Shown here: positions 1-52,280 of the stretch, piece by piece
How positions within the stretch are numbered: the stretch's first letter is position 1
Layout of the letters: every line of letters starts with the position of its first letter
Assembly (NCBI GenBank): GCA_050084515.1
Contig: CM114271.1
Span: 44,454,001 to 44,518,000 of the forward strand
DNA: 64,000 bases
Source of the DNA: Blasia pusilla
Taxonomy: Eukaryota
Direction of reading: 5' to 3'
Program-made: the position numbers and the translations under genes
The notes under the pieces: model-generated
Seen by the model: only the letters and a program-made list of their open reading frames with translations
What the model was told of the DNA's origin: nothing
The model's database searches: none

Positions 1-121
1 AAAAGAACACAATCCACAAGTCCAAAAACATATTCCAACAAACTTTAACAAACACCATTATGGGTTGAAAAAATCTCGTCCTTTATTACCTCCGAAGGAA
101 CCTCGAAAATGTAGATTTCAC

Positions 122-385
122 CTAGTCTATGATTTCTTCAGCCTCGTCATCTACAAATTTACTCCTAACTCTCCTCGGTGACAGTACCAAAGGAATGTCT
201 TGGGATTCAAGTGGCTCCTCTGGCCGATTGTAGACGGGGATTGAAAATGTTGGCGAATTCGAGAGCCTTGGCCCCCCCCTAGGTACACCATAACGGTCCC
301 ATGTAACCTGTCTCGAGTCCCACCGCCTTCCTCGGCAAAAAGATACCTTGTATGCGTTCGCAATGTGACACCCATCCAATATCAA
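122..385 (-). pseudogene. Unknown coding segment downstream of the methyltransferase region, copy 1
   Basis: Peptide CRGRRWDSxQVTWDRYGVPRGGPRLSNSP...RSKFVDDE open in both arms; no family recognised. Confidence 0.4.
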
Positions 386-1513
386 TATCCGCTCCGTCCC
401 GGTAATACCATTACGGCAACCGCACGGTAGAAGGAATCCAACACGTCGAGAGAGAAGAAAAGAAGCCCTACGCCGCCTTTACGAGTTGAGGGGAAGGTGC
501 CAAGGGAAGAAGCCCGCCAGATCGCCTCTTAAGTTGGACCAACAGGAAAGGGTCGATCGGGCAACTGTCGGAATCAGGCAGGTTGCATGGAGGTGGTAAA
601 AGGGTGCGATGGTCAAAAAGCGAAAAAGTTGCAAGCGAGGAGAAATCCGACGGGTTGCGAGTGGTCATAAAGTGAAAAGTTGCAAGCGGGAGAAATCCGA
701 CGGGTTGCAAAATAGAAGTCCGTGGAGTACATAGAGGATCACATTCAAAAGACAAAAATGATCAGCAAACATTTACAAGCACCACCATCATTGAAAAAAT
801 CTTTCGCTTTATATCATCCGAAAAAAGCTCAAAATCGTACATTTGATCTATTCTATGAAATCTTTTGCCTCATTATCAAAAAAACTCCCTACTCCAAACG
901 CGCTTGCTTTGTCAGGCTGGGTCGTTGAGTTCTTTGAACTCACTCGTCATCGTCGAGAGCTCTTGCAAAATTACTTTCGGCCTTGCCCTCCCGATTTTTG
1001 GAATCGTTGGAAGTGACGATGGAGTCACTACCAAGGGTGGCTCGAATCGAGCTCGGCCGGTGGAGAGTTGTACGCCCCAACGAGCCTTTTGTATTCTCGC
1101 CTTTGCCTCCTTGCAAAGGTCAAGCGATTCTGCCTTCCTCGAGGCGAGAATGTTCGTGCCACTCTGCCAGGCGCCTTTGATACTTGCCCTTGAAAGTCCC
1201 ACTAAGTCGAACACCAAGTCACCCGGCCTTGAGCAGAGCTCGATGAGCGCTTGCATCGGGTGGCGACTTTTCCTTCCTCCCAAAAGTGGGGGGTCTTGTC
1301 TTGCATGTAAATTCGGGGAATTGTACAAACTATCTAAGTTGTACCCATCGAGCATGGATCCACATGATCGTGGATCTTGAACACCTGAAATTGTGCTCGG
1401 GCGAACGAAGCGAAGAACGAGGGGAGTGGTCCATCTCAGAATCAAAGACGTTGGAAACAATGTCGAAAATAAAGAAGTCGGCTTGAGAACATTTTCAATA
1501 ACTGACTTTGGAT

Positions 1514-1833
1514 CAACCTGTCGGAGTCCGACGGGTTGTTTTATCCTGGACCAACCCGTCGCCTTCCGATGGGTTGGTCACGGAAAAAAACAACCCGTCG
1601 GGCTCCGTTGTTTTTGTCCGTGAGCAACCTGTCGGAAGGCGACGGGTTGTTGGCCTAGAGCAGCCCATGCTCGCCTACGAGCAACCCGTCGCTATCGACG
1701 GGTTGCATCCAAAACAAAATCAACCGGGAAAAACCAAAAGCAAGCGCAACCCGCCGGGTTCGGCGGGTTTGCGTACACCATGATTTTTCCTGTGTATGGG
1801 AAAGATGCAACCCGTCGGAAAACGACGGGTTGC
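1514..1833. repeat. Intronic cluster of the 27-bp palindrome GCAACCCGTCGGANTCCGACGGGTTGC
   Basis: About 7 degenerate copies, near 1515, 1552, 1591, 1625, 1681, 1746, 1807. Confidence 0.9.
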
Positions 1834-3968
1834 TCTCAGCCGAGCATGGGCTGCTCTAAGCCAGCAACCCAGATTGACTCTCATTATACACATCATTAAA
1901 ATATAATTGAAATTATAGTACAGGAATTGAGCCTTACCCGAATCTGACTCGTCGCGGATCCGAGTGGGTACTCATTTTTTATGATCCACGATTGCGCCGT
2001 CCTCCACTTTAGCGACCTCATGACGCACTGGAGGTTGAAGAGCTCGTCCTCGCTCCCTCCATTCAACACCAAGAAGCAGCCCCTGTCACTCAGATAGGCG
2101 TCTGCAAAGGAGAACAAAAGCGCAATCTGGTCATAAGATAGCGGCACATTCCACTCACGTACCTCGTCCGACGGATTCTCGCCCCAAAGTCGCAACCTCG
2201 AGGACAGATCGGCGATCAAGAAATCCACCGCAACCTCTTCGACCACTCCATTCACCGTCCAGGAAGCCTGCCCGTTTTGTTGGAGCTTCCGTCCCAGCGT
2301 TGTTAATTTTTCGATGGCTGGTGTCGACGCTTAGGAACTGAAGCTCTTCAACTCATCTAGTAAAGGAGTGAACTGAAGGAGGACGCTTGTCCGGGTCGTT
2401 GTTTGTCTGTGTCTTCCCAAGGATGATGGACTGTATTCTCCTTGGGACAACCCGGGCACCTCTCGCTTCCGCTTCTCCCTAGCCTGGGGACGGCTTGTCC
2501 GGGTTTCTATGACCTTAGACTCTCGTGGCGTTTTTAGCGAGGACCTGGTCCGACCCTCACCCCGCTTTCGTGGGGACGATTCCGCCTCGGCCTTGAATCT
2601 TCAGCCTCTCTTTGGGAAAACTCGGCCTCTGAATTTTTCCCTCCCCTCGCCTTGCCTTTGAGACCATTTGTGGATTTGTCTTTGGGTGTGCGGACCTTGA
2701 AGCCAACTCACTGTCTCGTGGGCTGCTCTTCATCATCTCCTACGAAGAAGTCTTCAGGCTGGGAAATTGGGGATGTCGTCTTGTCCTGAGGCCACAGCAT
2801 CATGAAGCACTCGTAAATCCTTATCGGTGATGTCTTCAGGGTCGTTGAAGTTGAGCCAAATGGGGCAATTCTCCACCTCCCAATCGGACATATGTTGCCC
2901 CATCTCCATGTCGTACATGGAGAATGTCTCTGCATCCGGCAGCGAAGCCCACAATTTCAAGGCTATCGGTAATTTTCCCCACGTACCTGCATTCTTACAC
3001 TGGACGAGGTATCTGAAGACCATCCGTTGGGCAGCTTTTAGTCGAACAAAATTGGCCGTCTTCTCTTGTAGATCTCGCTTCTTCTTTGCTTGATCCCGTT
3101 TGTTCCCCTCTACTTCTTTGTCAAGCTCTGCGTGAGGGAGGACGTAAACCTTGAACATGGTCTTGAATCCTGGGTTTTTGGTTGGCTTGTCCCGGATGTC
3201 GTCAAGCCAAACCTCGAAATCTCCAGAACTTTCAAGGTTTGCTTCCGGCGGGATGGGCTCTAATCTTTTGAGCTCCGCTTGCAGACTGTCCAGCAAGGAC
3301 TTTCCGATTACCCGCAACGCGTCCCAGAACGACCATTCGCGTAGCCAGTGCGAGATCACTGGATCGGACACACCCGGAGGATGGTTTGCCGCCCTCTTAT
3401 GGGCCTCTGAGCCCTCGAGACTGATTTTCATCAGTCGTATCCTCCTAAACTCGCTTATCCCGGACAACGCAAACCGATGCACGCGATCTAGGGACACTTT
3501 CTCCCCAATCCGACTATGCGGATCTTCATCCCTTTTCCGCTGGCGCTTGATAATCGCCTTCAGCTCCTTGTAGAACTCCGGACCAAGTTCGTGGTTGAGA
3601 ATGCTGATGTATCGCTGCATCTTGCTCAGCAGTATATTCGTTCTTCGCAGATCATCGCAGCTTGATGAATTTGTTCGCGCCGACGCAGATACCTTCTCCC
3701 TCCGCTCAGTTCCGGCAGCGCTTTTCTTTGTGGCCTGTATCTTCGACCAGCAAAGGATGGTTACGGCTGCATCTTGGGAAATAAACTTATTTGCCCAAGT
3801 TTTCTTTTTAATCTGAGCACCCTTTGCAAGCATCTGATTGACAAGGGCATCGCCCAAGAACCCCTTGTACTCTCCCGTGTGTGTCGTAAGTACCTTCCTC
3901 ACCCGATCGCAGTCCTGGATCCAGTGGTGGGTGACATTCCCCTCCGATACAATCTGCACATCCAAACT

Positions 3969-4388
3969 CAACCCGTCAGGAAATTACATGGGTTCGCGAA
4001 CCCGCCGGACTCGACGGTCGTCATACTCAAGGTCGGATTCTAGCAACGAGCTAAATGATGCAACCCGTCGGAGTCCGACGGATTGCATTCTGATTTGCTA
4101 ATGACTGGTAAGCAAACCGTCAGATTCCGACGGGTTGCTCGACACGCCGCCTTGTCAGGATGTTTTTTGAAGAATGCAACTCGTCGGAGTCCGACGTTTG
4201 GGTCAAAAACTAGTTAAATCTATGGTCAATCAAACAACTTGTCAGAGTCCGACGATTTGCATTCTTAAAAAAACATCCGAAAAAGCGTGTAGTCGAGCAA
4301 CCCGTGAAAGTCCGACGAGTTGCTTTCGGCAAAAACAAACCTAATCCATTCATCAATCGAGCAACTCGTCGGAGTCCGACGAGTTGCG
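3969..4388. repeat. Largely intronic cluster of the same palindrome
   Basis: Copies near 4060, 4112, 4176, 4234, 4297, 4361. Confidence 0.9.
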
Positions 4389-5850
4389 TAAGTGTTAAAG
4401 ATACTCACGTGTTCATGGCATGCATTGCCATCTCCACCGTCGCCATGTGATGAGGGAATGGGTGAAGGACCACTGCCTTCACGCAAAAATGTGCCTCCAA
4501 TGAGTTGGGCCGCTCCTCCGCAAACTTGGTCTACGCCATGAACCTGTGATTTCCATCCCAGATGAAGAAATGCAGATTCCTCATCCAGCTGAATTCCGTG
4601 CCCTCAACTTGCCTTGTGAAATCCTGGTCTCGCATCCTCCAGAATGTGTCGAGCTTTTCCAAGTCCTCCTCGGTAACCAGAGCTTGGGTTCCATGCTCGT
4701 CGTAAGGCTGAACATAGAAGGGAGGAAAGTTGTCGACGTAGGATGCTGTCGCCGCCGATTGTTTAAGCTTCGCGATGTCCTCGTCGGACTGAATTTCGCG
4801 GACGTATTCCATTGTCCGCAATCAGCAGAGTGGCCCTCCATGAGTGCCATCTGCTTTACCACCTGTCAGAACCGGGATAAGATGAATAAGCTACATTGAA
4901 TTCCCAATGAATTGCAATTCACATAATTGAAAAAACCCAGATCCTCTCTTACCCGCTCGAAAATGGGGTCGGTTTCTTGACCAGCTAACTTGTCTGAGAC
5001 AGAAGCTAGCAAATCGACTGGGAACTCGTTGATCCGATAGAGGTCGATGTCCTCCGCCGGGCTTGGAGTCGAGAATGACCGCTCTCCGGCTTCTTCGGCC
5101 ATGTCCACCATCTCCACGCTGGCGGTCCTTATGACCTCGTCGTCATCGATTTCAACTTCTGGCGTTTCCACTATGTTGATTGTGTCCCCGGACGTCATGG
5201 GGGACATTTCCCGCATCCCAACACTTGCGGTTGGATGGGCAGGGCTATCGTCAATGGCTATCGCTTTTTCCCTCCTCGCTTTAGCCAATTCTGCCCTCCT
5301 CACCGACGCGTCCAGACGCTTCTTTTCTCTCTTTTCGTCAGCGATCCTTTTCTTCAAGGCCTGCGACGTCTCAACCTCTGCGTTCTGTTTATCTAGCGCC
5401 TCTTGAACACGTCTCGCAAGAAGCACTTGGTTGTGCATCTCCGCTTCCCTTTCCCGCTCCTCAATTTCCTGCTGCCTAATTTCATTCGCCGAACGAGGCC
5501 CAGGAGATGCTGACGCAGGAGTCCTAATGGACTTCGGGTTGAAGCTCCCAGACTTGTTGGCTTGTGATTTTTTCCTCGTCATTTTTTCCGGAAATGCCTC
5601 CACCTATGTCCACGAAAAATCCCTTGATCAGTCGCCTTGCTGATGTCGAGATGGGGAGCTCGAATCGTCCCGCGATCGTTTAGTCGAACCGTCTCGCTGT
5701 CGTTCGGTCAAACGGTCTCGCTATTGTTCCCTCCTATCGACTCGCGATGTGTCGCCGTGTGAAACGCCCCTTCGTATCTGATCAGCTGCTGCGCGGGAGA
5801 GTGAGGAATGAAGATCGCGAAATGAGAAACCGGAAATGAGCGATTTCTGC

Positions 5851-5860
5851 CCTATTTATA
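5851..5860 (-). promoter_or_regulatory. Putative TATA box of the ParB-MTase gene
   Basis: TATAAATAGG on the minus strand ~250 bp upstream of the first coding exon and just downstream of the palindrome array. Confidence 0.5.
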
Positions 5861-5949
5861 CTTTTCTAGCCGTTGGGCTGACCGTTGGGTCCCATCGTCC
5901 TTTCGACGGCGACGTGCCGGAGGTTACGGAAGTCCGAAGGTGAAAATTG

Positions 5950-6480
5950 GCAACCCTTCGGAGTCCGACAGGTTGCGCGCCTCCGCCATCCTGGGTACGT
6001 CGCCACGTGTGCAAGCAACCTGTCGGAGACCGACGGGTTGAGCGCCTCCGTCGTCTTCAGAAAAGAACGCGAGGTACCCGCGCAACCCGTCGGAGACCGA
6101 CATGTTGCGCGCCTCCGGCGTGTTTGGGACGGGAACGAGACGTATCTTGGGCAATCCGTCGGAGACCGTTGGGTTGCACGCTTCCCTCATCAAGTGTTAA
6201 GAACGAGGGCTTCCTGTGCAAGTCGTCGGAGTCCGCTTGCTGCACCACAAGGCGAGGCCCTTGCGCAACCCGTTGGAGGGCGACGGGTTGCACACCTCGC
6301 CGTCTTTGGGCAAATAGGTGAGGCACCCGCGGTACTCGTCGGGAACAGACGGTTTGCACGCCTCCAACATCTTCGGGCAAGAAGGAGCGGTATCCGAGCA
6401 ACTTGTCGGAGAGCGACGGGTTGCTCGCTTCGACAATGTTTGGCAGAAGCGTGCAACCCGTCCGAAGCCGACGGGTTGCA
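5950..6480. repeat. Regularly spaced palindrome array, period ~66-67 bp
   Basis: Nine units starting at 5950, 6015, 6082, 6151, 6218, 6265, 6331, 6398, 6453. Confidence 0.9.
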
Positions 6481-7289
6481 GGCTTCGGTTAGCTTCGAGT
6501 AATTTTTGAGTTACCAGGACTCCCACGGGTTCCAAGTGTGATGCGCAACCCTCTGCTTCCCAAATCCGGTAACATATTGCAACAGAATTGAATGTGTTAT
6601 AGAATTGGATCCATTGTGTCAGACAATGTCACCCACCGAATTCATCTTGTCAGTAAAAATCTGTCAAGAGTATCTGTTTCCTATTCACTATAAATTAAAA
6701 ATTCTCATTCTCATTCTCAGTCTCCTCCCGTTGGAATCTTCTTGGAATGGATAATTATGTTAAGCTCACTTGTGGGAGTCATCCGAGGCCCTTCCTCAAT
6801 CGAAATCATTCGACCCCAAGCTCGTGAGTCTTTCATAGCAAATGGATGAAAATTTTCATGTCTTCGATTTCTTCTCCAATTGGAACCATCTTTGTATCCA
6901 AAGATGTTAGGGTGGACAGACGGAAGACATAATAGGTGAGACGGTCCAGCAAAGTGATCTCGCATCGTAAAGTATGGAATCTCCTACCTCTAGCAAATGG
7001 TCAATACTGAGTTTACGGCCCGCCCTGAATTCATCTGTTTCCCAAGTAGACGGTCTAGAATTTCCCTCGCTCCGAGCTCACGTTTGCAACTCCAAGCTCT
7101 GCAGATCCGCCGACTCCAACCGACGCTCATAATAATGTTGTTCTTCCCGAAGAGATTCCGGATGTTATCAACTCGGTGGATCTGTTCGGACATCAATCGG
7201 GCCCCTCGTCCGCCTACTCGTTTCTCTTGCAGTATCGGAAATAGTTTGCTTTCGTCTCTCGGCCTTGAAAATGTTCAAGCACATTCTTG

Positions 7290-8790
7290 TCGCATTTAGC
7301 CCGCCCACGCATCACGATGGTAATTGTATTTTTGAGTTGCCTCCACTTTCGCTCCTGCTCAAAAGAAGGATGGAGGACGCCTGAAGGGTATGGATAGAAA
7401 GTCTGATTGTCATCGATGGTGCAGGCTTCAACGGACCAGTGCTTCAATTCCAGATGGTCCTTGGATTGTCTCCCGCCGCCAATGCGTGGGAGCCTTGGAG
7501 TGTAGAAGTCCAGCATGCCCGTATCTAGAGCGCAACGGGCGAGTCAATACGTCGCAATTCCCTCCCAAGAATGTAGAAACTCCATACGAGGTCGGTGCCA
7601 CCATATCGCCGGGAGGCCATCGATGTCCTCATTGTCAGGCATCGCCCTTCTGCGTTGGAGCGTGTCCTGCATATATATTTTTCATTGTCCACGACTTGGG
7701 CTCCACGTTAGAGTATACAAGGTGGCGGCAAGAAATGTTGGCTCCACACTCATCCCGTGACCGATGCAATTCAAAGACACATCAAGGAGGATGTGGCGAA
7801 GAAAGTAGCCGAGGTCTACAGAAACTCTCCGGGTTCAAAGCCCAGAGTGATCAAGCTCACAACGGCATCACAAATTTGTGAACAATTGCTTGGAATCCCT
7901 GAACAGGGCGAGATCACTGCGGTTGAGAAGAAACAACTCTGGGAAAATCTCGCATTTTCGCGATCCGAATGCTTCCGAATTTCTTTGCGTCAAATACGAG
8001 TTCGATGGAAAGACGGCCGAAATGGATGCCATCGCAGAATCAAGGCCAACTCCTGATTTCCATTCATTCAAAGATGGCGTTCATGGGCCAAGGAGGCGAG
8101 GATCCAGGGCCTATGTCTTCAAAATGTCAACCACAGTCCGTGAGTGGCCTCGATCTTATAGATCGAATGAGGGAAGGGGAAGATCTTTACGGGAGCCGGG
8201 TAAGCTTTGATATTTGCTCAGAGTGCTTTGAACGGATGGTTGACGATGGGTGCTCACGTTTATGACCATGTGGAGAAGGGACTCAAAACTATATTTGTGT
8301 GTGAAGTAAAGGCAGAAGATGTTGGTAGTTTGAAGATGTGCTAGTTACTCTTATTGGAGGTGATGAAGGAAAACAAAAGGCCACCTCCGAAAATTTATGG
8401 GTTCATGGCGGACAATGCACAACCTGGATGGATTGCTATCCGGGAAGTGTCTCAGGGTGAGAGGTTCAACCGGAGAGGGAAAGGTCGGATGCTTTCCATT
8501 GGCAGCGATCTGTGACCCGGTACACAAATCTTGCATCAAGGAGAATAACAGGCGAGCATGTCACTTACTCCAACGCTGCAAGGACAGCAAAACCTTGAAG
8601 CAAAGGCCATGGAATGCCATGAAGAACTTCATGGGTGGTGGAGGAAGCATGCGATTGAGGGGAAGTACAAAGAGTTGTGCTCTTGGTTGAGTTGGTGGAC
8701 TGTACGTATGAGTAAAATGATTTCTGATTGAGGAATGGCCTCCTGATGACTGCCACAAGTGAGCTTAACATAATTATCCATTCCAAGAAG
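7290..8790 (+). pseudogene. Decayed Mutator-like (MULE) DDE transposase with N-terminal GCM-like Zn domain
   Basis: Across frameshifts: GNCIFELPP, GMDRKSDCHRWC...CVGALECRSPACP...CPHC...CP, YVFKMS, SFD, TMGAHVYD, GFMADNAQPGWIAIREV, LSWW; truncated near 8790. Confidence 0.65.
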
Positions 8791-9597
8791 ATTCCAACGG
8801 GAGGAGACTGAGAATGAGAATGAGAATGAGAATGAGAATTTTTAATTTATAGTGAATAGGAAATGATACTCTCTGATGATTTTTTTCTTGACAAGATGAA
8901 TTCGGTGGGTGACATTGTCTGACACAATGGATCCAATTCTGTAATACATTCAATTCTGTTGCAATATGTTACCGGATTTGGGAAGCAGAGGGTTGCGCAT
9001 CACACTTGGAACCCGTGGGAGTCCTGGTAACTCAAAAATTACTCGAAGCTAACCAAAGCCTGCAACCCGTCGGCTTCGGACGGGTTGCACGCTTCTGCCA
9101 AACATTGTCGAAGAGATGGCACTCATGGAGGGCCACAACGCCCCAAGGATTCCACTCTGCCGATTGCGGACAATGGAATACGTCCGCAAAATTCAGTCCG
9201 ACGAGGACATCGCGAAGCTTAAACAATCAGCGGCGACAACATCCTACGTAGACAACTTTCCTCCCTTCTATGTTCAGCCTTACGACGAGCATGGAACCCA
9301 AGCTCTGGTTACCGAGGAGGACTTGGAAAAGCTCGACACATTCTGGAGGATGCGAGACCAGGATTTCACAAGGCAAGTTGAGGGCACGGAATTCAGCTGG
9401 ATGAGGAATCTAAATTTCTTCATTTGGGATGGAAATCACAGGTTCATGGCGTGGACCAAGTTTGCGGAGGAGCGGCCCAACTCATTGGAGGCACATTTTT
9501 GCGTGAAGGCAGTGGTCCTTCACCCATTCCCTCATCACATGGCGACGGTGGAGATGGCAATGCATGCCATAAACACGTGAGTATCTTTAACACTTGC

Positions 9598-10321
9598 GCA
9601 ACTCGACGGGACGGTTGTTGGGATGCTTTAACACTTACGCAACTCGTCGGACTCTGACGAGTTGCTCGATTGATGAATGGGTTAGGTTTGTTTTTGCCAA
9701 AAGCAACTCGTCGAACTCCGACGGGTTGCTCGACTCGACGCTTTTTCGGATGTTTTTTTAAGAATGCAACTCGTCGGACTCCGACGAGTTGTTCGATTGA
9801 CCATAGATTGAATTGTTTTTTGGCCCAAAGCAAACCGTCGGAGTCCGTCGGGTTGCTCGACTCGCCGCCTTGTCATGATGTTTTTTGAAGAATGCAACTC
9901 GTCGGACTCCGACGAGTTGTTCGACTGACTGTAGGTTTAGAAGGTTTTTTCCCCAAAGCAACCCGTCGGAGTCCGACGGGTTGGTTGCCTCGAAACTGTT
10001 TTTGGCCGAAATCAACCCATCGAAGTCTGACGGGTTGCATTTGGAAGTTGGTTCCCCAAATTTCGCGTCAAATTGCAAGTTTACATTCAATTGCGCAACC
10101 TGTCGGACTCCGACGGGTTGCTATGTTCACGTTAGTATGTTTAGTTGCACAACCCATCGGACTCCGACGGGTTGAAACCAGGCATTAGCAAATCTGAATG
10201 CAATCCATCGGACTCCGACGGGTTGCATCATTTAGCTCGTTGCTAGAATCCGACCTTGAGCTGTGACGACCCGTCGGAGTCCGACGCGTTGCAGGAACCC
10301 ATGTAATTTCCTGACGGGTTG
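9598..10321. repeat. Intronic palindrome cluster, longer than its left-arm counterpart
   Basis: A dozen or more copies of caaCCCGTCGGA(c/g)TCCGACGGGTTG after the donor gtgagt at ~9577. Confidence 0.9.
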
Positions 10322-12458
10322 AGTTTGGATGTGCAGGATTGTATCGAAGGGGAATGTCACCCACCACTGGATCCAGGACTGTGATCGGGTGAGGAAGGTG
10401 CTTACGACGCACCCGGGAGAGTTCAAGGGGTTCTTGGGCGATGCCCTTGTCAATCAGATGCTTGCAAAGGGTGCTCAGATTAAAAAGAAAACTTGGGCAA
10501 ACAAGTTTATTTCCCAAGATGCAGCCGTAACCATCCTTTGCTGGTCGAAGATTCAGGCCGCGAAGAAAAGCGCTGACCGAGCCGAGCGAGGGAGAAGGTA
10601 TCTCGTCGAGCGCAGTAACAAATTCATCCAAGCCGCAGATTCGCAAAGAACGAAATACACGGCGAGCAAGATGCAGCGATACCTCAGCATTCTTAACCCC
10701 GAACTTGGTCCGGAGTTCTACAAGGAGCTGAAGGCGATTATCAAGCGCCAACGGATTGGGGAGAAAGTGTCCCTGGATTGCATGCATCGGTTTGGGTTGT
10801 CTGGCATAAGCGAGTTTAGGAGGATCCGACTGATGAAAATCAGTCTCGAGGGCACAGAGGCCGTAAGAGAGCGCACACCATCTCCTCGGGTGTGTCCGAT
10901 CTAGTGATCTCCCACCGCTACGCGAATGGTCGTTCCGGGGACGCGTTATGGTTATCGGGAAGTCCTTTGGCCGATACCGCAAGCGGAGCTCGAAGATTAG
11001 AGCCCATCCCGGATGAAGCAAACCTTGAAAGTTCTGGAGATTTCAAGGTTTGGCTCGACGACATCCGGGACAAGCTAACCAAAAACCCAGGATTCAAGAC
11101 CATGTTCAAGGTTTGCGTCCTCCCTCACGCAGAGCTTGACAAAGAAGTAGAGGGGAACAAACGGGATCAAGCAAAGAAGAAGCGAGATCTACAAGAGAAG
11201 ACGGCCAATTCTGTTCGACTAAAAGCTACCCAACGGATGGTCTTCAGGTACCTCGTCCAGTGTAAGAATGCAGGTACGTGGGGAAAATTACCGGTAGCCT
11301 TGAAATTGTGGGCTTCGCCACCGGATGCAGAGACATTCTCCATGTACGACATGGAGATGGGGCAGCACATGTCCGATTGGGAGGTGGAGAATTGCCCCAT
11401 TTGGTTCGACTTCAACGACCCTGAAGACATCACCGATAAGGATTTACGAGTGCTTCATGATGCAGTGGCCTCAGGACAAGACGACATCCCCAATTTCGTC
11501 CAGCCTGAAGACTTCTTCGGAGGAGATGCAGAAGAGCAGCCCACGAGACAGTACCTGAGTTGGCTTCAAGGTCCGTCTGACCAAAGACAAATCTAAATGG
11601 TCTCAAAAGGCAAGGCGAGGGGAGTGAAAAATTCAGAGGCCGAGTCTTCCCAAAGAGAGGCTGAAGATTCAAGGCCAGAGGCGGAATCGTCTGGGCGAGA
11701 GGGGAGAGAGGGTCGGACCAGGTCCTCGGAAAAAAAAATGCCACCAGAGTCTGAGGTCATAGAGACCCCGACAAGTCGTCCGCAGACTCGGGAGAAGCGG
11801 AAGCGAGAGGTGCGAGGGTTGTCCCAAGGAGAATACAGTCCATCATCCTTGGGAAGACACAAACAAACAACGACTTCGGACAAGCGCCCTCCTTGATTCA
11901 CTCCTTTACTAGATGAGTGAAGAGCTTGATTCTCAGCGTCGACACCGACCATCGATAAATTGACAATGCTGGGACGGAAGCTCCAACGAAACGGGCACGC
12001 TGCCTGGACGGTGAATGGAGTGGTCGAAGAGGTTGCGGTGCATCTCTTGATCGCTGATCTGCCCTCGGGGTTGTGACTTTGGGGCGAGAATCCGTCGGTC
12101 GAGGTACCTGAGTGGATTGTGCCGCTCTCTTATGACCAGATTGCGCTATTATTCTCCTTTGCGCACGCCTATCCGAGTGACAGGGTCGCTTCTTGGTGTT
12201 GATGGAGGGAGCGAGGACGAGCTCTTCAACCTCCAAAGTCGCCAAGAGGTCGCTAAAGTGGAGGACGGCGCAATCGTGGATCATAAAAAACGAGTACCCA
12301 CTCCGATCCGCGACGAGTCAGATTCGGGTAAGGCTCAATTCCTGTACTGTAATCTCAATTATATTTTAATGATGTGCATAATGAGTGTTCATCTCCGTTG
12401 AGTGAGTATAATGAATGTCAATCTCCGCTGGCTTAGAGCAGCCCATGCTCGGCTGAGA

Positions 12459-12721
12459 GCAACCCGTCGGTTTCCGACGGGTTGCATCTTTCCCACATAC
12501 ACAGGGAAAACCGCGGTGTAACTGCAACCCGTCGGAACCCGACGGGTTGCGCTTGCTTTTGGTTTTTCCCGTGTTTTTCCGAAAGTCGCAACGTCGATAG
12601 CGACGGGTTGCTCACGGACAAAAACAACGGAGCCCGACGGGTTGTTTTAGTCCCTGACCAACCCGTCGGAAGGCGACGGGTTGTTCCAGGACAAAACAAC
12701 CCGTCGGACTTCGACAGGTTG
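12459..12721. repeat. Intronic palindrome cluster (mirror of 1514-1833)
   Basis: Copies near 12460, 12524, 12588, 12659, 12697. Confidence 0.9.
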
Positions 12722-13536
12722 ATCCAAAGTCAGTAATTGAAAAATCTTCTCTTAAGCCGGCTTCTTTAGTTGCTGACATTGTTTCCAAAGTGCTGATTTA
12801 CGATGGACCACTCCTACGTATCGCTGCGTTCGCCCGAGCACAATTTCCAGGTGTTCAAGATCCACGATCATGTGGATCCATGCTCAGATGGGTACAACTT
12901 AGATAGTTTGTACAATTCCCCCCCGAGAATTTACATGCAAGACATTACCCCACTTCTGGGAGGAAGGGAAAAGTCGCCAGCCCTGATCCAAACGCTCATT
13001 GAGCTCTGCTCAAGGCCGGGTGACTTGGTGTTCGACTTAGTGGGACTTTCAGGGCAAGTATCAAAGGCGCTGGCAGAGTGGCACGAACATTTCTCGCCTC
13101 GAGGGAAGGCAGAATCGCTTGACCTTTGCAAGGAGGCAAAGGCAGAATACAAAAGGCTCGTTGGGGCGTACAACTCTCCACCGAAGCCGAGAGCTCCGGT
13201 TCCAGAGCCACCCTTGGTAGTGACTCCATCGTCACTTCCAACGATTCCGAAAATTGGGAGGGCAAGGCCGAAAGTAATTTTGCAAGAGCTCTCGGACGAT
13301 GACGAGTGAGTTCAAAGAACTCAATGACCCAGCTTGACTGCAGCGTTTGGAGTAGGGAGTTTTTTGATGATGAGGCAAAAGATTTCATAGAATAGATCAA
13401 ATGTATAGTTCCAAGCTTTTTTCAGATGATATAAAGCAGAAGATTTTTTGAACGATGGTGGTGCTTGTAAAAGTTTGCTCAACATTTTTTGTCTTTTCGA
13501 ATGTGATCGTCTATGTACTCCGCGGACTTCTATTTT

Positions 13537-14590
13537 GCAACCCGTCGGATTTCTCCTGCTTGCAACTTTTCACTTTTTGACCACTGTAACCTGTCGGATT
13601 TCTCCTGCTTGCAAATTTTCACTTTTTGACCACTATAACCTGTCGGATTTCTCCTGCTTGCAAATTTTCACTTTTTGACCACTGCACCCTTTTTACCACT
13701 TCCAAGAAACTTGTCGGATTCCAACAGGTTGCCTGATCGGACTCTTTCCGTGTTGGTCCAACTTAAGAGGCAGTCTGGCGGGCTTCTTCCCTTGGCACCT
13801 TCCCCTCAACTCGTAAAGGCAGGCGTAGGCTTCTTTTCTTCTCTCAGACGTGTTGGATTCCTACTACCTGTGCGATTGCTATAATGGTATTACCGGGGAC
13901 AGAGCACATATTGATACTGGATGGGTGTCACATTGCAGAGCGTACAAGGTATACTGCCGAGGAAGGCGGTGGGACTCGAATCAGGTAACATGGGACCGTT
14001 ATGGTGTACCTAGGGGGGGGCCAAGGCTCTCGAATTCGCCAATATTTTTGATCCCCGTCTACAATCAGCCAGAGGAGCCACTTGTATCCCAGGACATTCC
14101 TTTGGTACTGTCACCGAGGAGAGTTAGGAGTAAATTTGTAGATGAAGAGGTTGAAGAAATCATAGACAAGGTCAAATGTACATTTCCGAGGTTCCTTCGG
14201 AGGTAATAAAGGACGAGTTTTTTCAACCCATTATGGTGTTTGTAAAAGTTTGCTCGAATATTTTTTGGGACTTGTGGATTGTGTTCTTTTAGCTACTCAG
14301 AATTACAATTCTGCAACCCATATGATTCCGACGGGTTGCAACTTTTTGCTTTTTGCCCTTTGCAACTTTTTTTTACCATTTCGGGCAAGTCAGCCGGATT
14401 CGACAAAGTTGATCGCTTGAGTGATCGGACTCTATCCCGGTGAGACCAACTTCTGACGCATTGTGGCGGGCTTCTTAACTTTTGGCTTGTTCCCCTACAT
14501 TCACCAAACCAGTTGTAGGCTTCTTTTCTTGTCTAAGATGTGCAGGATTCCTACTACATGTCGGATTGCCATTTCGGATTCCCAACCTGT
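13537..14590. repeat. Further degenerate palindrome copies and a ~49-bp triplication
   Basis: aaccYgtcggatttctcctgcttgcaa..tttcactttttgaccact three times at 13537-13685; degenerate copies at 14313-14590. Confidence 0.75.
13850..14206 (+). pseudogene. Unknown coding segment, copy 2 (mirror of 122-385)
   Basis: Same CRGRRWDS...RSKFVDEE peptide. Confidence 0.4.
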
Positions 14591-17198: not shown

Positions 17199-20100
17199 AT
17201 GCAATGTTGCGGTTGCTGTGGCTCTGTACTGTATTGCACACCACCCACTAGAATGTACTTAGTTAAATCTGACCACTACCCACCATACGCTCTATGCAAT
17301 GGCTTCCTCAAACCTTATAGTATTCCAACTCCTAGCGAGTTCTATGCATGCGATCTGTGCACAACTTCTGAGCTACCTACCATGTTAAATGTGTACATGA
17401 GACTAGCTTACATCAGAGAAATACTAGCTTCAAACCCCCTCCAACTTCAACTACTATCCATTGTTGATTCAAGAATTGGAACCGTTTAAAAATTCAATGG
17501 ATTTCACAAAGGATTCTTTCGGCCAACATCCCTTTTAGACTCCCCCCTCGTGGCCTAGAATATGTCCATTCCATAAAAACCCACCCTAAAATCTAAGTAG
17601 GACAACGTGAGTAATGTCCTTGCGACTAACTTAGCTATAAATAATTTATATAGGGATTAGAAGTGCTTACTAGAACTTCCCAACCCTTCAACGGGACTTG
17701 TAGTACTTCCAGCAAATTTTGTTTCATCAATTTTGAAAAAGAGCCGACAGAAAGGACAAATAACTCACAACATATCCTTTAATCCTTATCAACTAGAACT
17801 TAATGTATAACAAGATGTCACGTACTCTCTCCCAGTTCAGCGTGGCCATTCATACGATATATTTGATAATGGGAGTGTATTCCTTCAAAGGCAAGCCTTC
17901 TCTAGAGAATCATTCTTAACTGACTCATCAGGAAATTCAGTAGACAAAAGATGACAAATTGAAATAGATATCTTTCCCTTCCTCTTCCTATATCTCATCG
18001 GATATTTTCAATGTTCCCTATCTTTCTCCGACTACAATAGGCAACGCTCTAAACAACTCTTTAGTGCTTTCTCCCTATACAAACCTTACTCCCTTGTCAC
18101 GCATCAACTATGTCAATTGATTTCACTATGCTCTTCCTCAAGCTCATTCATACTAAATAGAGACCTAGATAAACTAAGACGTGACAAGCCAGACTTACCA
18201 GAGGAAGACTTGTACCGTGAGCTGCCTAGACATTCACTGAGTCCGCAAATCCCAAGTACCCTTGGTTGGCATAGAAAACATATTAAAGATATTAAATCAA
18301 TGGTCCAAAAGTGGGGCATGCCTCACTTTTTCCTTACACTTACATCTGATGAAGTCTCTTCAACAAAGTGGCCAAAAATAGATGCAATTGAAAAAGTCCT
18401 CCATACATTTAACCCCAAGTTTACTTGGCGAGACGCACCTGCTGAATGCACACAACTATCTCATATTAGGCTTCATACATTCCTATCTTAGTTCATATTT
18501 TCAGGCCCACAAATTATGGGCAAGGTACAAGACTACATTCTCAGATATGAAGTGCAAGGTAGGGGTAGTCTTCATTGCCATATGATTTTTTGGATAGATA
18601 TTGTAGACGTAGATCGCATTGCATTACAAATTTGTGCCTATCTACCTAACCCACCTACACGACATCCACAGACTTGCAACACAAATCTTGAATCTGATCC
18701 TCATTCATTAATGTATACCTATGTCACAACAAAACAACTCCACATTTTTAAAGAAAGTGGGTGTATTGTCAAGAAAAAGTCACAACATTCATATTGCAGA
18801 CTTGGCTTTCCACATGATGTAAGTCTCCGGAAATTCCCCTTCATTCACCCTCATACTAACATGTGGACATACTTCAGACCATTTAATATTCATAGAAATG
18901 TCATTCCATACCATCCCCTCGTTCTTCTCTTTGTGGGGAGCACATATGAATCTCCAACGGGTTACATACACTGAGTGGTCTTTTTACCTCATCAAATATG
19001 CACTTAAATCAGAGCCTACAGGTTCTTTGGATATTAACACACAAACAACACGTTGTCTAGGGCTAGATAGTTTAGATGAAGTTAAGCTTAAACTTATTTC
19101 AGGCATTGTCTTAAATCATTTTGTATCATCTACAGAAGCTTCTCTAATGTCCTCACAAATTCCCATCATATTCAGACCCCTGTCTGTGAAATACATTGAC
19201 TCTAATCCGTCATCCAGAAGGACAACCTCCATTCACCGTGTTCTAATATATTGCAGTAAACCAGAATCTCTTGAATTAGAAACATTTGTCCACTATTGGT
19301 CAAATTATACTACTCTTAGGAAAACTAAACAAAAACTTCCAACCTCAGCAATTGGCATGGATTTGTTGACATGAATATTTTCTCCAAAACATCCATACTT
19401 GTTCGTTTTACATAATTCTATCCACTCTATCAATGGAATGAATTCTTCTACACTCAACTTCTTCAACACGTTCCTTTTAGATCGGACAATGATCTCATGT
19501 CCTCTCATTCACAACATTGGACATACCTCCATGAGTGCCTTTTGTGTGGCATCATCAGTGACATGGCATCCATAGATACAATTATAAACACCCATGCTAC
19601 TCTAAACCTTTGGAGTAAAACACACACAACATAAAATTTAGCTAAGGCAGCATATATTCTCAAGCCATTACTTGATGATAGACCTATGGATACTATGATA
19701 CGATCAAACACAATATTTTCACATACTACTAATTAGACACAAGAACCATTCAGTGTAGATACTACAAAATTGAATCATGAGCAGCAACAATTATTCCACA
19801 AATTCAAATCCAAGTTCTCTCGTCTAATTCTCCTACAAGGCTGCGTTTTAGGGTTTAGGGTTTAGGGTTTAGGATATTAAGATATTATTCATCAATTTTA
19901 TTGTCATTATCGGACTTCCTTAAACTTGCATGTCCTTCTAGCAGCTACCATAGGCATTGTTGCTGTTAGATTACATTCTCAGGCATCTATAGTCCACTCT
20001 GCATTTTGCATACCTATCCGTGGTGAAGTTCCTTACATGCATGCAACTTCTGAGGCAAGTATGAAGTTGAGAGAATCTAAAGTGATTATTATAGATGAGT

Positions 20101-21063
20101 GTTCAGTGTTGACACCACAATTGTTGCAAATAATAGCGATGAGATCAAATGAAATAGCACTTATATAGTATGTGATCCATTTGGAGGAAGGTTAGTAGTT
20201 TCAGTTGGTGACTTATCTTAGTTACATGCTGTTTGTAAACATAAGACAAACACTATGTGTTCATCTTGTCATGTACTTTCTTCATAATTGATGTACTTAG
20301 TAGAGAAGTATGAGCTTCACACATCTATCAGACATTCCAGGGACCCTCACTATTCACAATTTTTGAATGAAATCAGACAAAGACTCCCTTCCTCCCAACA
20401 AATTCATGAGTCTCTTGGCTGCTTTGTAATTGAGAATGAGGCAATTGATTTCCTTACTGAAGACACAACCATTATTTGCTCTCATAGCTCAAACGTTAGA
20501 ATATTTAATTCATTGTGCTTGAGCCATTTTTTGGAGAGGCTTCTATTCTCAGTACAGATCTACTCACAAATGCTCCGCATTCCCTAGAACTAAAATCATG
20601 GTTGCTTGATCCAGACTTCCATCAATTACCTTCTTTTGCCATTGGTTCAAAGGTTATGCTCACGTCCAATATTAATCTAAAAGTGCACGCTGCCAATGGT
20701 TCTCATGGTGTTATTGAAGATGTACACTATAAGGATGGCATCTTAAACTCTATAGTAGTTAAAACTACTACGTCTAGTCATACATTATCTGTAACGAGAA
20801 AATATTTTAGCTCCTTGAGATATGGTTCAGATAGGAAGTATTACAAAAAAACCTTTCCACTTACCTTGGGTTATGCCATGACATGCCACAAGAGCCAAGG
20901 CCTTACAATTAAAGGTAGATGTCTGCTAGTGGTTAAATCTCCTTTTGCACCTGGTTTAGTGTATGTAATGCTCTACAGGTCTCAAAGCAGAGATCAGATC
21001 AGAATTCTTGGCGATTTAGCTCCTTCTGATTTTATCACATTTGGTCAAGATTCACACTCATGA
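17199..21063 (+). mobile_element. Helitron Rep/PIF1-helicase pseudogene
   Basis: Rep motifs GMPHFFLTLT, YEVQGRGSLHCHMIFW, CRLGFP, GAHMNLQRV, YLIKYALK; helicase motifs LAATIGIVA, IIIDECS, FPLTLGYAMTCHKSQGLT, PGLVYVML; stops and frameshifts. Element ends not identified. Confidence 0.92.
19847..19873 (+). repeat. Interstitial telomeric repeat (TTTAGGG)x3 + TTTAGG
   Basis: tttagggtttagggtttagggtttagg read directly. Confidence 0.9.
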
Positions 21064-25920: not shown

Positions 25921-26269
25921 TGCAGTGATCGAGTGACGACCTTGAGAGATGGTGATCTTAGTAGCATTTAGCATTGCCATCACTTGGCCTAGTGATTTGA
26001 TTGAGAGACATGTCCATGCAGAGGATACTCCCGTTCTTGACATTTCTATGGAAAGGAGTGTCATGGTAGCCGCATCAGTTTGTGGAGGACAGGTGCCGCT
26101 TTGGGGCTCGATTGAGAAGCTTCGACGCTTAGCCACTGAGCATGTGCACACCGCGTGGAGCGAGACATTTGCACTAGAGTGTGACGGGTCAGAGGAACCA
26201 CAGGTAGGCAGGAGTGCTACTATGATCCCTTTGGACACCACCCCGATTGTGTGGTGCATCTTAGAGAAG

Positions 26270-27210
26270 GGTATTCGGGTGTTGGATCTCTTTGGAGGGA
26301 TCAACACTCGGTTAGATGTTGTTTCGTACGCTGGAGTACGCGTGCAGCAGTACGTGTATGTGGAGATTGATGATGTTGTGAGGGGCGCTTTACTTCACCA
26401 TGTGGTGCTATTACGCCTCCATTTTCCTGACTTGTTGTCTGCGTTCGCCATTTAGGGTTCCCAGAGTTCCCTACCGAGGGATATTTCATTGTTGGGGGTG
26501 CAAGACTTGGAGCGGGTAGGGACCATAGACTTGGTCATTGCTGGTTGGCTGTGTGAGGGCCAATCGAGTGTTGGACGAGGTAGCGGGTTAGCTGACACTC
26601 GGTCCAGGTTGTTTTGGGAGATGATATGGATCTTGCGACATTTACAGGAGCATCCGTCTTCTTCTCCATCAAACATTTTGGAGAATGTGCCAATTTTGGG
26701 CGATTCGAGGTCCCGTGTGGTGACGAGTGTACAACAGGTGCGCGCATGGATCGGTACGGCAGTGTTGTTAGATGCAGCGAGTGTGGGTTCACAAGCATAT
26801 CGCCCGCGTCTTTGGTGGACCAACTTGGTACCACATGAGGTATTGCGGAGGGCTTATGCAAGAGTGGAGCATCCCTTGGATTTGTTGATGGATTCTATAT
26901 TGGATCCGGGCCGTCGATCACAGGCAATGAGGCACGATGATCAACCTCCGTTGACTGTGGTCAACAGGATTGGCATGCCACGAGCAGCCTTTCCCACATT
27001 GGTGAGTTTTCGCGCTTCCTGTGCATTCAAAGAGGCCAGACCTGGCTTGGTTTGGGATGACCAGGTACATAGGTTGGTGGAGCCCAACGCCAATGAGCAA
27101 GAGCGAGCGATGGGATTCCCCACAGGAGTGATGGGAGTACCGTCACTATCGGAGGCATGACGACGTCATGTCTTGGGTCAAGTGATGGATCTGAACTGCT
27201 TGACATGGAT
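26270..27210 (+). pseudogene. DNMT3-like C5 cytosine methyltransferase domain within pol
   Basis: Motif I IRVLDLFGGI, II YVYVEID, IV IDLVIAGWLCEGQS (PC mutated), VI ILENV, VIII AYRPRLWWTNL, IX EQERAMGFPTG. Confidence 0.9.
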
Positions 27211-27529
27211 TTTCAGCTCAAGGGTAGTTGAGTAACGTCGTTTGAGGATGCAACAGATCACAAAAGTTACATTGGCGGGCCCCATGCCTATCGAGACGGT
27301 TGAGGCAGTGGTTGGGGGCGAGACTCGAGGAGATTGATATACCAGGGGTGATCGGGAGAGACACCCTTGGACTTCTTGAGATATTTTGAAGGTACGCCAA
27401 GAGATGATAGCCACAACATTGAGCATGCTGCTGACTACTGCACGTGGAGATAAGAGTTCTATTGTTCGAGACGGGGTTGCACCATAGCAACCACCAACAT
27501 CCACATTAGAGAGTCCTACAATAGTCACG

Positions 27530-28975
27530 ATGGAGACTTGGAAGCCAGATATGGGCCCTAAGTTGATAGGAGAAGAGGGGCGTCGGATACACCAGTTCCT
27601 TAGGAGTTATAGGAGTTGTTTTGCATTTAGTATCCATGATTTGGGTACTCTGAAGGGTCCAGGGATCTGCATTGAGTTATCGAGTGACACGCCAATCTTC
27701 CAACGACCCTAGAAGTACAATAATATGGAGAAGGCTCTGATTCAAAGTAGTAGCCAAGACTTGGTTAGAGTAGGACTAGTAGAGATGTCGCATGGAGAGT
27801 ATGCATCTGCCACTGTCATGCCCGCCAAGAAGGATGTGCATGGCAACTAGACGGATAGGCAAATGTGTGGAGATTACCGACCTATCAATTGGCAGACAAA
27901 GGCCGATAGGTATGCCATGCCCATCCCTGAGGAGATCTTTGATGCGATTGGGCATGCAAAGGTCTTCAATTCATCGCATTTGCGAGTCGGATACCATCAG
28001 CTGCCTATCAAATTGAAGGACGGGCAGAAGACGGTATTATGGGGCATCGATCCTCACGAGAAGGATTGTTTGTACCAGTGGCGGTTATTACCATTCAGGT
28101 TAAAGAATGCCCCGGTTGAGTTTCAGAGGATCATGGATAGGATCTTGGCAGGTCTGGATTTTGCTAGGTGTTATATTGATGACATCGTAGTCTTTAGCGT
28201 CACAGTTGAGGAGCATGAGCGACATCTAGAGGAGATGTTTTGTCAATTGCAGTTACATGGGTTGAAGCTACATCCAGGCAAGTGCAAGTTCTTCTATGAC
28301 CAGATTGAGTACTTGGGTCATACAATACACCCTTGGGGCCTTGGTGTGCAACAGATGAAGGTAGAGGCTATTTCACGCATTCCACGCCCTACACATGTGA
28401 GTCGAGTTCGTGCATTTATGGGATTGGCAAACTTCTATCGACGGTACGTCAAGGGTTTCAGTTCCATTGCGAAGCCGCTAACCTTGATGACCAAGGTGGA
28501 TCAAGAGTGGCATTGGGTGGATGAGCAAGAGACAACATTTTAGATGCTCAAGGACAGATTGATGTCCGCGCTCATATTGAGGAGATCGATCAGGGATCGT
28601 ACTTTCTACTTGCATACCGATTAGAGCATGTTGGGGCTTGGAGGTGTGCTCACCCAACATGATGATGATGGTAGAGAGTTCGTGGTGGCTTATGCTAGTC
28701 GCTCGAACAACGTTGCAAAGGCGAAGTATAGCTCGTATGAGGGTGAATGCTTGGTTGTTGTGTGGGTTGTCGTTCATTTCAGATGTTACCTATTCGGCAA
28801 TCCCTTTACTATCATTACTGATCATCAGCCACTTAAGTGGTTGATGGAGTCCGATAAGCTTATAGGGAAGCTTGCAAGGTGGGCTCTTTTGTTGTAGGAG
28901 TATGACTTTGAGGTGGTGCATAGACCTGGGACGCTCAACCAAGATGCAGATGGTTTGAGCCGTATACCATGCGCG
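27530..28975 (+). pseudogene. Reverse transcriptase and RNase H
   Basis: MCGDYRPIN, PFRLKNAP, CYIDDIVVFS; LHTD*S.LGLGGVL, YSSYEGECL, TDHQPLKW. Confidence 0.95.
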
Positions 28976-29329
28976 AGTTAGCGAGATGCGATTGGAGCTT
29001 GTTGGCATGGTGAGAGTGATGAGGAGTTGGTGCCAAGATGGCATGCGTCAGCCTATTTGGGCTTGTTGGCTATGGAGAGCCAGATTGCCGAGACTTTGAT
29101 GGCGAGGTCTGATGGAGAGTCCTTAGATCCAGAGGCCGATAAGGAGACGAAAGGTGGCCGAGATATTCACGACGATGGAGTGGTCTTGGAGTACGCATCC
29201 ATTGTGCCTGCGAGCACAATGGGTGCTAGAGAGCGGGATCGGATCCTACAGCGAGCTAGACGGTTCCGGTGGGAGGGGACACATATGTTGCGAGTGTGGG
29301 AGGATGGTAGAGTGCGTGAAGTGCCTCAT

Positions 29330-52180: not shown

Positions 52181-52280
52181 GGTCTGTAAAATGATGGGAA
52201 TGCCATGTGGGAGTGCGCAGAAGGCTAATATGAGTGTTTAATTTTGTTCACGAGGGGACGAGCATTTTTACATTTCCACT

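Follow-up and report, generated by a model that had tools for sequence, protein, structure and literature searches.

Organization of the locus

We analyzed a 64,000-nucleotide stretch of Blasia pusilla DNA (contig CM114271.1, positions 44,454,001 to 44,518,000; hereafter the window), which contains spliced genes and is rich in transposons. At its start lie two inverted copies of a multi-exon gene, copy L on the minus strand and copy R on the plus strand, in which a ParB-like N-terminal region precedes a methyltransferase-like C-terminal region. We lean, with limited confidence, towards reading them as two old, decayed copies of a high-copy, transposon-type gene whose product would be targeted to its own element.

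Each arm contains one gene rather than a series of separate genes, because the exons of both arms are collinear with single proteins of Riccia sorocarpa, P0037 (1207 residues) and P0001 (1191 residues), and RNA reads join position 3953 to 4408. This joint, corresponding to intron 2 of copy L, is present in four RNA reads and in no DNA contig, and it fits the GT..AG rule when a 1-nt deletion of copy L at 3954 is allowed for. The spliced gene that the original prediction had placed in both arms is thereby borne out, and its motifs DGNHR, IADL(P/S), LSDRG and GDLVFDLVGLS(G/R) were all located, the last of them at 13019-13054 (+) and 1188-1223 (-). In addition, exon 5 holds EKSPAL..LIELCSRPGDLVFDLVGLSG.

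The extent of 912-13330 proposed earlier is probably too short for the gene. The TGA at 13307 sits within a consensus GTGAGT donor (13306-13311), and the downstream frame 13903-14206 (+) encodes a tail, '..RSKFVDEEVEE', which resembles the Riccia tail '..RMVFIDDEA' weakly (E 0.57). We therefore propose a tentative sixth exon, with which the gene would extend past these limits. An RNA joint 13318/13897 (11 reads) was considered as the last intron and rejected. It is no proof of splicing, because a joint almost identical to it, 13337/13897 with 36 other letters, is present in a DNA contig.

The two arms are inverted copies of each other, with 92.1% identity over 5106 aligned columns and 80 gaps in a global alignment. 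They contain 24 ungapped inverted-repeat blocks of 71-505 nt that are 74-99% complementary between 1-6783 and 8745-14290. By blastn, the arm segments 1-1634/14290-12601, 1679-4137/12613-10150, 4176-4833/9856-9152 and 6425-6810/9116-8716 share 87.6%, 88.5%, 88.9% and 92.5% identity, respectively. The arms flank a unique centre of 1.9 kb and stop at the same homologous point next to it, and the outer end of the left arm is cut by the window start. The 1575 bp absent from the right arm comprise exon 1 and the upstream palindrome array of the left arm. The coordinates of all features are listed in Table 1.

Both gene copies are dead, and neither can make protein, in agreement with the earlier remark that both were broken. 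Copy L has a 19-nt deletion in exon 2, indels of 1-2 nt throughout, a TAG right after DGNHRFMA, and an in-frame stop ahead of the exon-4 motif IV. Other copies in the DNA run have C at 4532, which restores Trp in place of this TAG. Copy R has lost exon 1 and upstream sequence through the 1575-bp deletion; it also carries frameshifts in exons 3, 4 and 5, a 27-nt deletion in exon 3, a stop behind IADLPSGL, and many indels.

Several side observations concern the arms. The segment 13351-13882 is repeated directly about 690-775 bp downstream, at 14126-14572, with 71-77% identity, which places the duplication of the unit's 3' part before the decay of the inverted duplication. The CpG observed/expected ratio is 1.04 and 0.95 in the arms, 0.85 in the centre and 0.52 in the rest of the window; it is high in the arms despite 90 of the 236 inter-arm transitions lying at CpG sites, and the CpG-rich palindromes account for only part of it. 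Within exon 2 of copy R, 28-52 reads per RNA run match only the 44 nt at 9154-9197 (coding part IPLCRLRTMEYV), with the flanks unmatched on both sides. The first mates of these reads lie on the plus strand, opposite to the other right-arm reads, and the left flank still encodes '..MEGQKAPRI'; the reads come either from an antisense transcript or from a diverged paralogue that is well expressed. A scan of the window against Rfam gave no match.

Table 1. Positions of the arms, exons, palindrome arrays and central segment in the window
Feature	Position	Strand	Remarks
Left arm of inverted duplication	1..6810	-	Holds gene copy L
Right arm of inverted duplication	8716..14290	+	Holds gene copy R; lacks 1575 bp (= left 4853-6427)
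Unique centre	6811..8715	+	Cysteine-rich frames, DDE-transposase-looking by eye only; truncated at about 8712 relative to other copies
Copy L exon 1	4953..5582	-	ATG 5582-5580; 210 codons, Lys/Glu-rich, probably disordered; present in left arm only
Copy L exon 2	4409..4862	-	ParB-like region; DGNHR 4543-4557; 19-nt deletion near 4833; TAG 4531-4533
Copy L exon 3	2711..3953	-	Conserved middle domain; 409-residue open frame 2754-3983; frameshift near 2760
Copy L exon 4 (ends approximate)	1943..2600	-	Linker and motif-IV region; IADLSS 2199-2216, LSDRG 2079-2093; in-frame stop near 2331-2333
Copy L exon 5 (5' end approximate)	944..1390	-	SAM-motif region GDLVFDLVGLSR 1188-1223; GTGAGT donor 943-938
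Copy L exon 6 (tentative)	122..393 (about)	-	Putative tail '..RSKFVDDEAEEIID'
Copy R exon 2	9116..9574	+	IPLCRL 9149-9166, DGNHR 9428-9442; best-preserved ParB-like region
Copy R exon 3	10335..11545	+	Middle domain; 27-nt deletion, several frameshifts
Copy R exon 4 (approximate)	11640..12395	+	IADLPSGL (IADLPS 12050-12067), then stop; several frameshifts
Copy R exon 5 (5' end approximate)	12850..13305	+	EKSPALIQTLIELCSRPGDLVFDLVGLSG; weak PF01555 match, E 0.0047, 17.3 bits
Copy R exon 6 (tentative)	13903..14206	+	Putative tail '..RSKFVDEEVEEIID'
Palindrome array upstream of copy L	5950..6476		Period about 67 bp
Palindrome array, intron 2 of copy L	4058..4400
Palindrome array, intron 4 (exons 4/5) of copy L	1514..1830
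Palindrome array, intron 2 of copy R	9639..10291		Period 64/128 bp, 12 copies
Palindrome array, intron 4 (exons 4/5) of copy R	12458..12721
Degenerate half-palindrome 49-bp tandem repeat, 3' of copy R exon 5	13536..13731

Gene family and copy number

The 409-residue frame of the middle domain served as the seed of a family search among 1.84 billion proteins, which returned 34 representatives with at most 33% identity (best E 1.7e-20). Ten of these were looked up, and proved to be nine hypothetical proteins of R. sorocarpa and one unnamed ENA protein. A profile search gave 74 matches among 8000 scored candidates, 73 from R. sorocarpa in addition to the same ENA protein. The Riccia models, more than 70 and mostly fragmentary, are spread over all large contigs. 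The methyltransferase-like part alone (query P0038) found 26 Riccia methyltransferase-like models. As 17 of 28 methyltransferase-like models adjoin an N-terminal or middle model (locus tag +/-1), and six Riccia models contain both DGNH[RQ] and motif IV, the two halves belong together at many loci. An intact member from R. sorocarpa, about 1200 residues long, comprises in order a probably disordered N-terminus, the DGNHR domain, a conserved, helical middle domain of about 400 residues, a basic linker and the methyltransferase-like domain. A search of ESM-Atlas with the middle domain gave no usable match.

In the source species, 93,870 contig pieces from one DNA run fall on the 15 kb of the locus at a likeness of at least 90%. 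RNA reads on the same 15 kb are few (201, 284 and 231 in three runs). They are mostly 90-95% alike to the window, and therefore come from other, transcribed copies; they are sense to the gene in each arm, provided that the library was stranded in the usual way. The family is a high-copy, repeated, transposon-type sequence of liverwort-like genomes.

The C-terminal methyltransferase-like domain

By sequence comparison, the C-terminal half belongs to the permuted (beta-class) N6/N4 amino-methyltransferase superfamily. With hhalign, the family matches two annotated plasmid beta-class enzymes with probabilities of 95.4%, 96.4% and 96.8% (E 1.8e-8 to 2.7e-10). A threshold of E<=0.01 for PF01555 is passed by 12 of 17 Riccia models (best E 1.9e-7), and five models bear a precomputed PF01555 label. 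Matches were also obtained to a DNA methyltransferase of PHROGs (E 8.7e-7) and to MTase_II of PADLOC (E 1e-4), and a PDB profile search with the methyltransferase alignment gave only weak matches to DpnA/CcrM (E 0.04-0.8). The beta arrangement described in the original prediction, with the catalytic motif before the S-adenosylmethionine (SAM) motif, was seen again: IADL[PS]S precedes GDLVFDLVGLS in both copies, and the order is the same in the Riccia models and the plasmid-enzyme alignments. SAM motif I of the Riccia proteins reads D-F-A-G-G-W-G-A, with FAGGWGA exact in 10 of 22 models and near-variants in the rest, and is degenerate in the window (DLVGLSG and DLVGLSR). The domain probably binds SAM.

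Of 26 Riccia models, 22 have D-[LM]-P-[ST]-G as motif IV; copy R has ADLPS(GL) and copy L has ADLSS. A low-stringency alignment pairs the motif with ADIPY and TDPPY of the plasmid enzymes. Its composition weighs against an active enzyme. The pattern (D/S/N)PP(Y/F/W/H) occurs in none of the 26 Riccia models and in no frame of either arm, so that the non-canonical motif IV remarked on earlier in the window recurs in its relatives, and the aromatic residue of motif IV is missing in all 26 models and both window copies. Most PF01555 scores fall under the gathering cut-off of 26.7 bits (17.3 for the window frame, and 26.2, 25.9 and 23.7 for P0035, P0094 and P0037, respectively), and the AlphaFold2 model of P0038, which covers the methyltransferase-like region, has a mean predicted local distance difference test (pLDDT) score of 38.4, too low to use. 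Without this aromatic residue in motif IV, it is doubtful that a methyl group is passed to a base. Of the proposed writer of N4-methylcytosine (4mC) or N6-methyladenine (6mA), the homology to methyltransferases thus stands, whereas an activity on adenine N6 or cytosine N4 is doubtful. By motif comparison, the suggested kinship with MpDN4MT1 found no support; nothing ties the family to that enzyme, whose TSPPY motif is absent from the Riccia models and the window.

The domain might rather be a pseudo-enzyme, which would bind SAM and/or DNA without methyl transfer and serve as a DNA-binding or scaffolding accessory factor. This is a possibility of some weight, although not the one we prefer. It would account for the variant motif, with D-[LM]-P-[ST]-G in 22 and a position-4 aromatic residue in none of the 26 Riccia models and with IADLPS and IADLSS in the window, and it has a precedent in the transposon-borne DIRS1 methyltransferase domain, called 'likely inactive' in the available text of PMC4738411. 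However, the variant motif is conserved across two lineages that share 25-30% identity, and motif I is well kept, which argues for a ligand-binding, possibly catalytic, pocket. In addition, ADIPY instead of DPPY is seen in a phage-type enzyme annotated on a plasmid of Bacteroides, so position 2 is tolerant, and an aromatic or large residue (W/Y/F/L/M) often follows the G of motif IV.

The N-terminal DGNHR domain

The DGNHR domain is probably a ParB/Srx-type domain with an insertion of roughly 48 residues. DGNHR occurs in 32 of 38 Riccia models, and both window copies contain ..F.(T/I)WDGNHR.., which is motif-level evidence for a ParB/Srx nucleotide pocket only. The domain was compared by hhalign with the N-termini of 60 distinct relatives of the ParB-methyltransferase of Streptococcus phage Javan122, the gene of which matches PF02195 above the cut-off and then encodes a DPPY beta-class enzyme. 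The score was 23.7 (P 0.01), a value reached by none of 100 column shuffles (maximum 21.8), with 11.1 for the reversed control and 21.9 for a true ParB-versus-ParB control run by the same procedure; a further hhalign run gave an agreeing result. The alignment sets DGNHR against GGHQR, ..RVRCVIL.. against ..AKCVIV.. and AMHNLN against ALNKI. When the stringency is lowered, IPLCRL..VR..LK.SF is further paired with the first ParB strand and helix, around the 48-residue insertion. As a lead only, the ESM-Atlas neighbours of the DGNHR region include ParB_N (0.92) and DUF6551 (0.90).

It is less probable, and in our view unlikely, that the motif is coincidental and that the N-terminal two thirds of the protein are lineage-specific, with another fold. 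The negative searches fit such a coincidence and count against a ParB fold. No ParB-type hidden Markov model (HMM) matches in Pfam (even at E<=10), NCBIfam, PHROGs or PADLOC. The PDB sequence and profile search with the ParB-like region returned no ParB chain, only low-complexity noise. A comparison with 58 ParB N-termini of integrative and conjugative elements (ICE) and plasmids remained at noise level (hhalign score 16.7, reached by 3 of 100 shuffles; reversed control 15.9). Structure prediction failed as well, the AlphaFold2 model of the ParB-like region having a mean pLDDT of 49.1, too low to use, and a Foldseek search with it found nothing at E<=0.001 (best PDB match E 0.9); poor AlphaFold2 models, however, count neither for nor against either fold. 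The ParB/Srx assignment made in the original prediction is therefore weakly supported, by the motif and the phage alignment but not by the HMM libraries. What speaks for it against a coincidence is that three separate ParB elements align in register with a genuine ParB-methyltransferase, at a score level with the true control and reached by 0 of 100 shuffles, that ParB_N and DUF6551 are among the ESM-Atlas neighbours, and that the domains follow one another as they do in prokaryotic ParB-methyltransferases.

The sole HMM hit over the DGNHR stretch was a weak Pfam match to DUF1015 (E 0.011), a family that we take to be ParB kin. A tblastn search of the ParB-like region against phages gave only two chance matches to RNA phages (E 4). 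Separately, the nearest ESM-Atlas neighbours of P0037 residues 165-330 are fungal DUF3723 clusters (0.96 and 0.95; 13 of 30 hits), with a cnidarian cluster close by as well; the DUF3723 HMM, PF12520, matched none of the family proteins scanned.

Palindrome arrays

The gene copies are accompanied by a 27-bp perfect palindrome, GCAACCCGTCGG-N3-CCGACGGGTTGC. Allowing up to three mismatches, it has 33 matches in the window, where 0 would be expected. All of them fall within 1516-14336, and the remaining 50 kb contain none. Of these matches, 19 are near-perfect, with 12-nt arms, and share one sequence. The palindromes form tandem arrays with a period of 64-67 bp upstream of the gene and in introns 2 and 4, and degenerate ones downstream. 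The palindrome unit is predicted to fold into a hairpin of -15.8 kcal/mol, compared to -7.9 +/- 2.0 kcal/mol for shuffled sequences (z -3.9).

The central segment and the carrier element

The centre is a repeat of its own, more abundant than the arms and transcribed, and its cysteine-rich frames match no family. It has the highest DNA depth of the stretch, 14,000-61,000 compared to 400-14,000 in the arms, and plus-strand RNA. Past 8712, other copies continue into sequence absent from the window, as seen in 14-22 RNA reads per run and 29 DNA contigs; the central frame is therefore truncated at its junction with the arm. Since the DNA depth also drops about 9-fold from 8501-9000 to 9001-9500, the central element must mostly occur without the gene behind it.

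According to the original prediction, the locus is a Mutator-like element in which a GCM-type transposase gene precedes the ParB-methyltransferase gene. We consider this arrangement, a GCM/WRKY-type transposase followed by a second gene, improbable. Its plus-strand frames are indeed cysteine-rich, with a DDE-like stretch by eye, the RNA strandedness fits plus-strand transcription of the centre, and homologues of the algal accessory genes lie in Chondrus Mutator elements, as described in the available text of a preprint (bioRxiv 10.1101/2025.02.11.637652). However, nine frames and a read-through of the plus strand of the centre matched no MULE, SWIM, DBD_Tnp_Mut or other Pfam family even at E<=10, a homologue search with the central frame 7336-7881 found none, and a PDB search with the central frames gave no match. 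The truncation at 8712 and the fall in depth speak against it as well, as do the 21 long Riccia models, none of which has a transposase domain. These results support neither the transposase, nor its linkage to the gene, nor the label 'Mutator-like'; the central transposase-like piece may be an unrelated neighbour. The mirrored sequences CACTA (about 6687) and TAGTG (about 8850) were considered for EnSpm ends and rejected, as such a pair is too likely by chance.

Equally improbable is that the gene is not mobile at all, being a host multigene family caught in a local palindromic (fold-back) duplication: both arms do stop at one homologous point that borders a unique spacer, and no ends, target-site duplications or transposase could be tied to the gene, but against this stand the more than 70 mostly fragmentary models on all large Riccia contigs, the very many diverged DNA pieces in the source species, the heavy decay in a transposon-rich neighbourhood, and the algal counterparts published inside transposons (available text of PMC12477816 and bioRxiv 10.1101/2025.02.11.637652).

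A proposed self-targeting mechanism

In the scheme that we slightly prefer, which goes with two old, inverted, decayed copies of a high-copy transposon-type gene, the ParB-like and middle parts of an intact protein would recognize the palindrome arrays of its own element, by analogy with ParB/parS and with algal accessory proteins. This recognition would bring the methyltransferase-like domain to the element DNA, by the same analogy, where the domain might modify the DNA or, if catalytically dead, only bind it. Some findings stand against this scheme as a whole. Within the window, no transposase, terminal repeat or target-site duplication is tied to the gene, and metagenome scans with the 409-residue frame and with the Riccia alignment found no relative. 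Binding of the palindromes by the protein is purely our inference, and a satellite or a miniature inverted-repeat transposable element (MITE) could be the alternative.

A bolder version of the self-targeting scheme would be a live self-marking module of giant liverwort DNA transposons. Here, the ParB-like and middle parts would load onto palindromes as a eukaryotic analogue of parS, even in introns, the D-x-P-[ST]-G domain would write an unusual SAM-dependent mark, and the DGNHR module would be one ancient accessory module shared with DUF3723 of the fungal Starship elements. We regard this as a long shot.

Other elements in the window

The stretch 25946-30602 (+) is retrotransposon-like, with a C5 cytosine DNA methylase frame at 26456-27160 (PF00145, E 1e-6, 28.9 bits, above the cut-off) directly upstream of a reverse transcriptase (27851-28543), and has a PHD finger at its end (30129-30602). 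Similar 'VLDLFGGI' frames, an RNase H and a PHD finger are found in a second copy that lies inverted at 51627-52247 (-) and 59768-61634 (-). With this PF00145 frame, the window holds two different kinds of transposon-borne DNA-methyltransferase-like genes. The stretch recalls the retrotransposons carrying DNA methyltransferases (DNMTs) that are reported for charophytes and dinoflagellates in the available text of PMC5890265. Moreover, a Helitron-like stretch at 17955-21063 (+) combines two neighbouring frames that match Helitron_like_N (E about 1e-6) with a frame resembling a helicase (20509-21063). A host gene of the Tcf25 family at 34856-36952 (+) (PF04910, E 1.8e-86) is the one clear gene outside repeats that was noticed in the window.

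Comparison with known systems

Transposon accessory genes of the ParB plus methyltransferase kind have already been published for algae, and the present family is their land-plant counterpart; a literature search found no report of ParB-methyltransferase transposon genes from liverworts. The comparisons below refer to the available text of the cited sources.

A close counterpart by description is the accessory protein of Sola1-1_Ec32 in Ectocarpus, a ParB-like plus DNA methyltransferase protein of 1104 residues (Dinatale et al. 2025, PMC12477816), for which the authors propose a possible new class of proteins that bind and epigenetically modify their own transposon. Both families have the two domains in one protein of about 1100-1200 residues, encoded in repeated eukaryotic DNA. 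However, Ectocarpus is a brown alga, and its gene is part of a defined Sola1 element, where it runs opposite in strand to the transposase, whereas the present gene comes from a liverwort-like plant and could be tied to no transposase or element ends. The catalytic motif of the present family is non-canonical. The likeness is drawn from the published description.

The red-algal Plavaka elements encode PAG2 (PF01555 and SET) and PAG3 (ParB-like and 2-oxoglutarate (2OG) oxygenase), with tandem inverted-repeat arrays beside PAG3, and homologues of the PAG genes are also carried by Zisupton and Fanzor-encoding elements and by Mutator elements of Chondrus (Petroll et al., bioRxiv 10.1101/2025.02.11.637652). 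They share with the present family a ParB-like N-terminus joined to a DNA-modifying domain, a PF01555 methylase, and inverted-repeat arrays adjoining the ParB-like gene; the ParB assignment of PAG3 is likewise weak (HHpred E 0.29). The differences are that ParB and methylase reside in separate proteins in PAG2 and PAG3 but are fused here, where arrays lie within introns as well, and that the PAG carriers are EnSpm/Plavaka, Zisupton and Fanzor elements or a Chondrus Mutator.

Prokaryotic ParB-methyltransferases are common in phages and plasmids (PMC4738411; PMC5512222), and Bce_0392 of Bacillus cereus is one such fusion (PMC5512222). Similar to the present family, the Streptococcus phage Javan122 gene (L084:931-2181) encodes ParB_N followed by a permuted beta-class methyltransferase, and its product aligns with both halves of the present family. 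Compared to the present family, the phage protein is shorter (417 residues), has canonical DPPY and DPFLGSGS motifs, and lacks the 400-residue middle domain, the 48-residue insertion and introns.

Marchantia MpDN4MT1a/b, which are 4mC writers with TSPPY (Walker et al., bioRxiv 10.1101/2021.02.12.428880), and bdelloid N4CMT, a PF01555 enzyme of permuted beta type with SPPY and proven 4mC activity (PMC8885841), are likewise eukaryotic proteins of bacterial amino-methyltransferase type. They are host genes with proven 4mC activity, described in these sources without a ParB-like domain, whereas the present family has D-[LM]-P-[ST]-G and is repeated and decaying. A further likeness is to DUF3723, an accessory gene of the fungal Starship elements (Gluck-Thaler et al., bioRxiv 10.1101/2021.12.13.472469), the function of which is given as 'not known' (10.1101/2025.02.28.640899). 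Both would be accessory genes of large mobile elements, and the ESM-Atlas proximity noted above is a lead only; unlike DUF3723, the family proteins scanned have no PF12520 match.

It was not until 2025 that transposon proteins combining ParB-like and DNA-modifying domains were pointed out, in brown and red algae, as a possible new accessory class with a proposed role in binding and marking their own element. The window and its Riccia relatives extend the ParB-like/methyltransferase accessory class to land plants, in a lineage that is transformable and already known to use 4mC, and they supply a candidate binding site (the 27-bp palindrome), a conserved variant catalytic motif and apparently full-length Riccia copies. 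Compared to the systems described so far, what is new here is the liverwort lineage, the fusion with a 400-residue middle domain, the conserved aberrant catalytic motif, and the presence of arrays inside introns.

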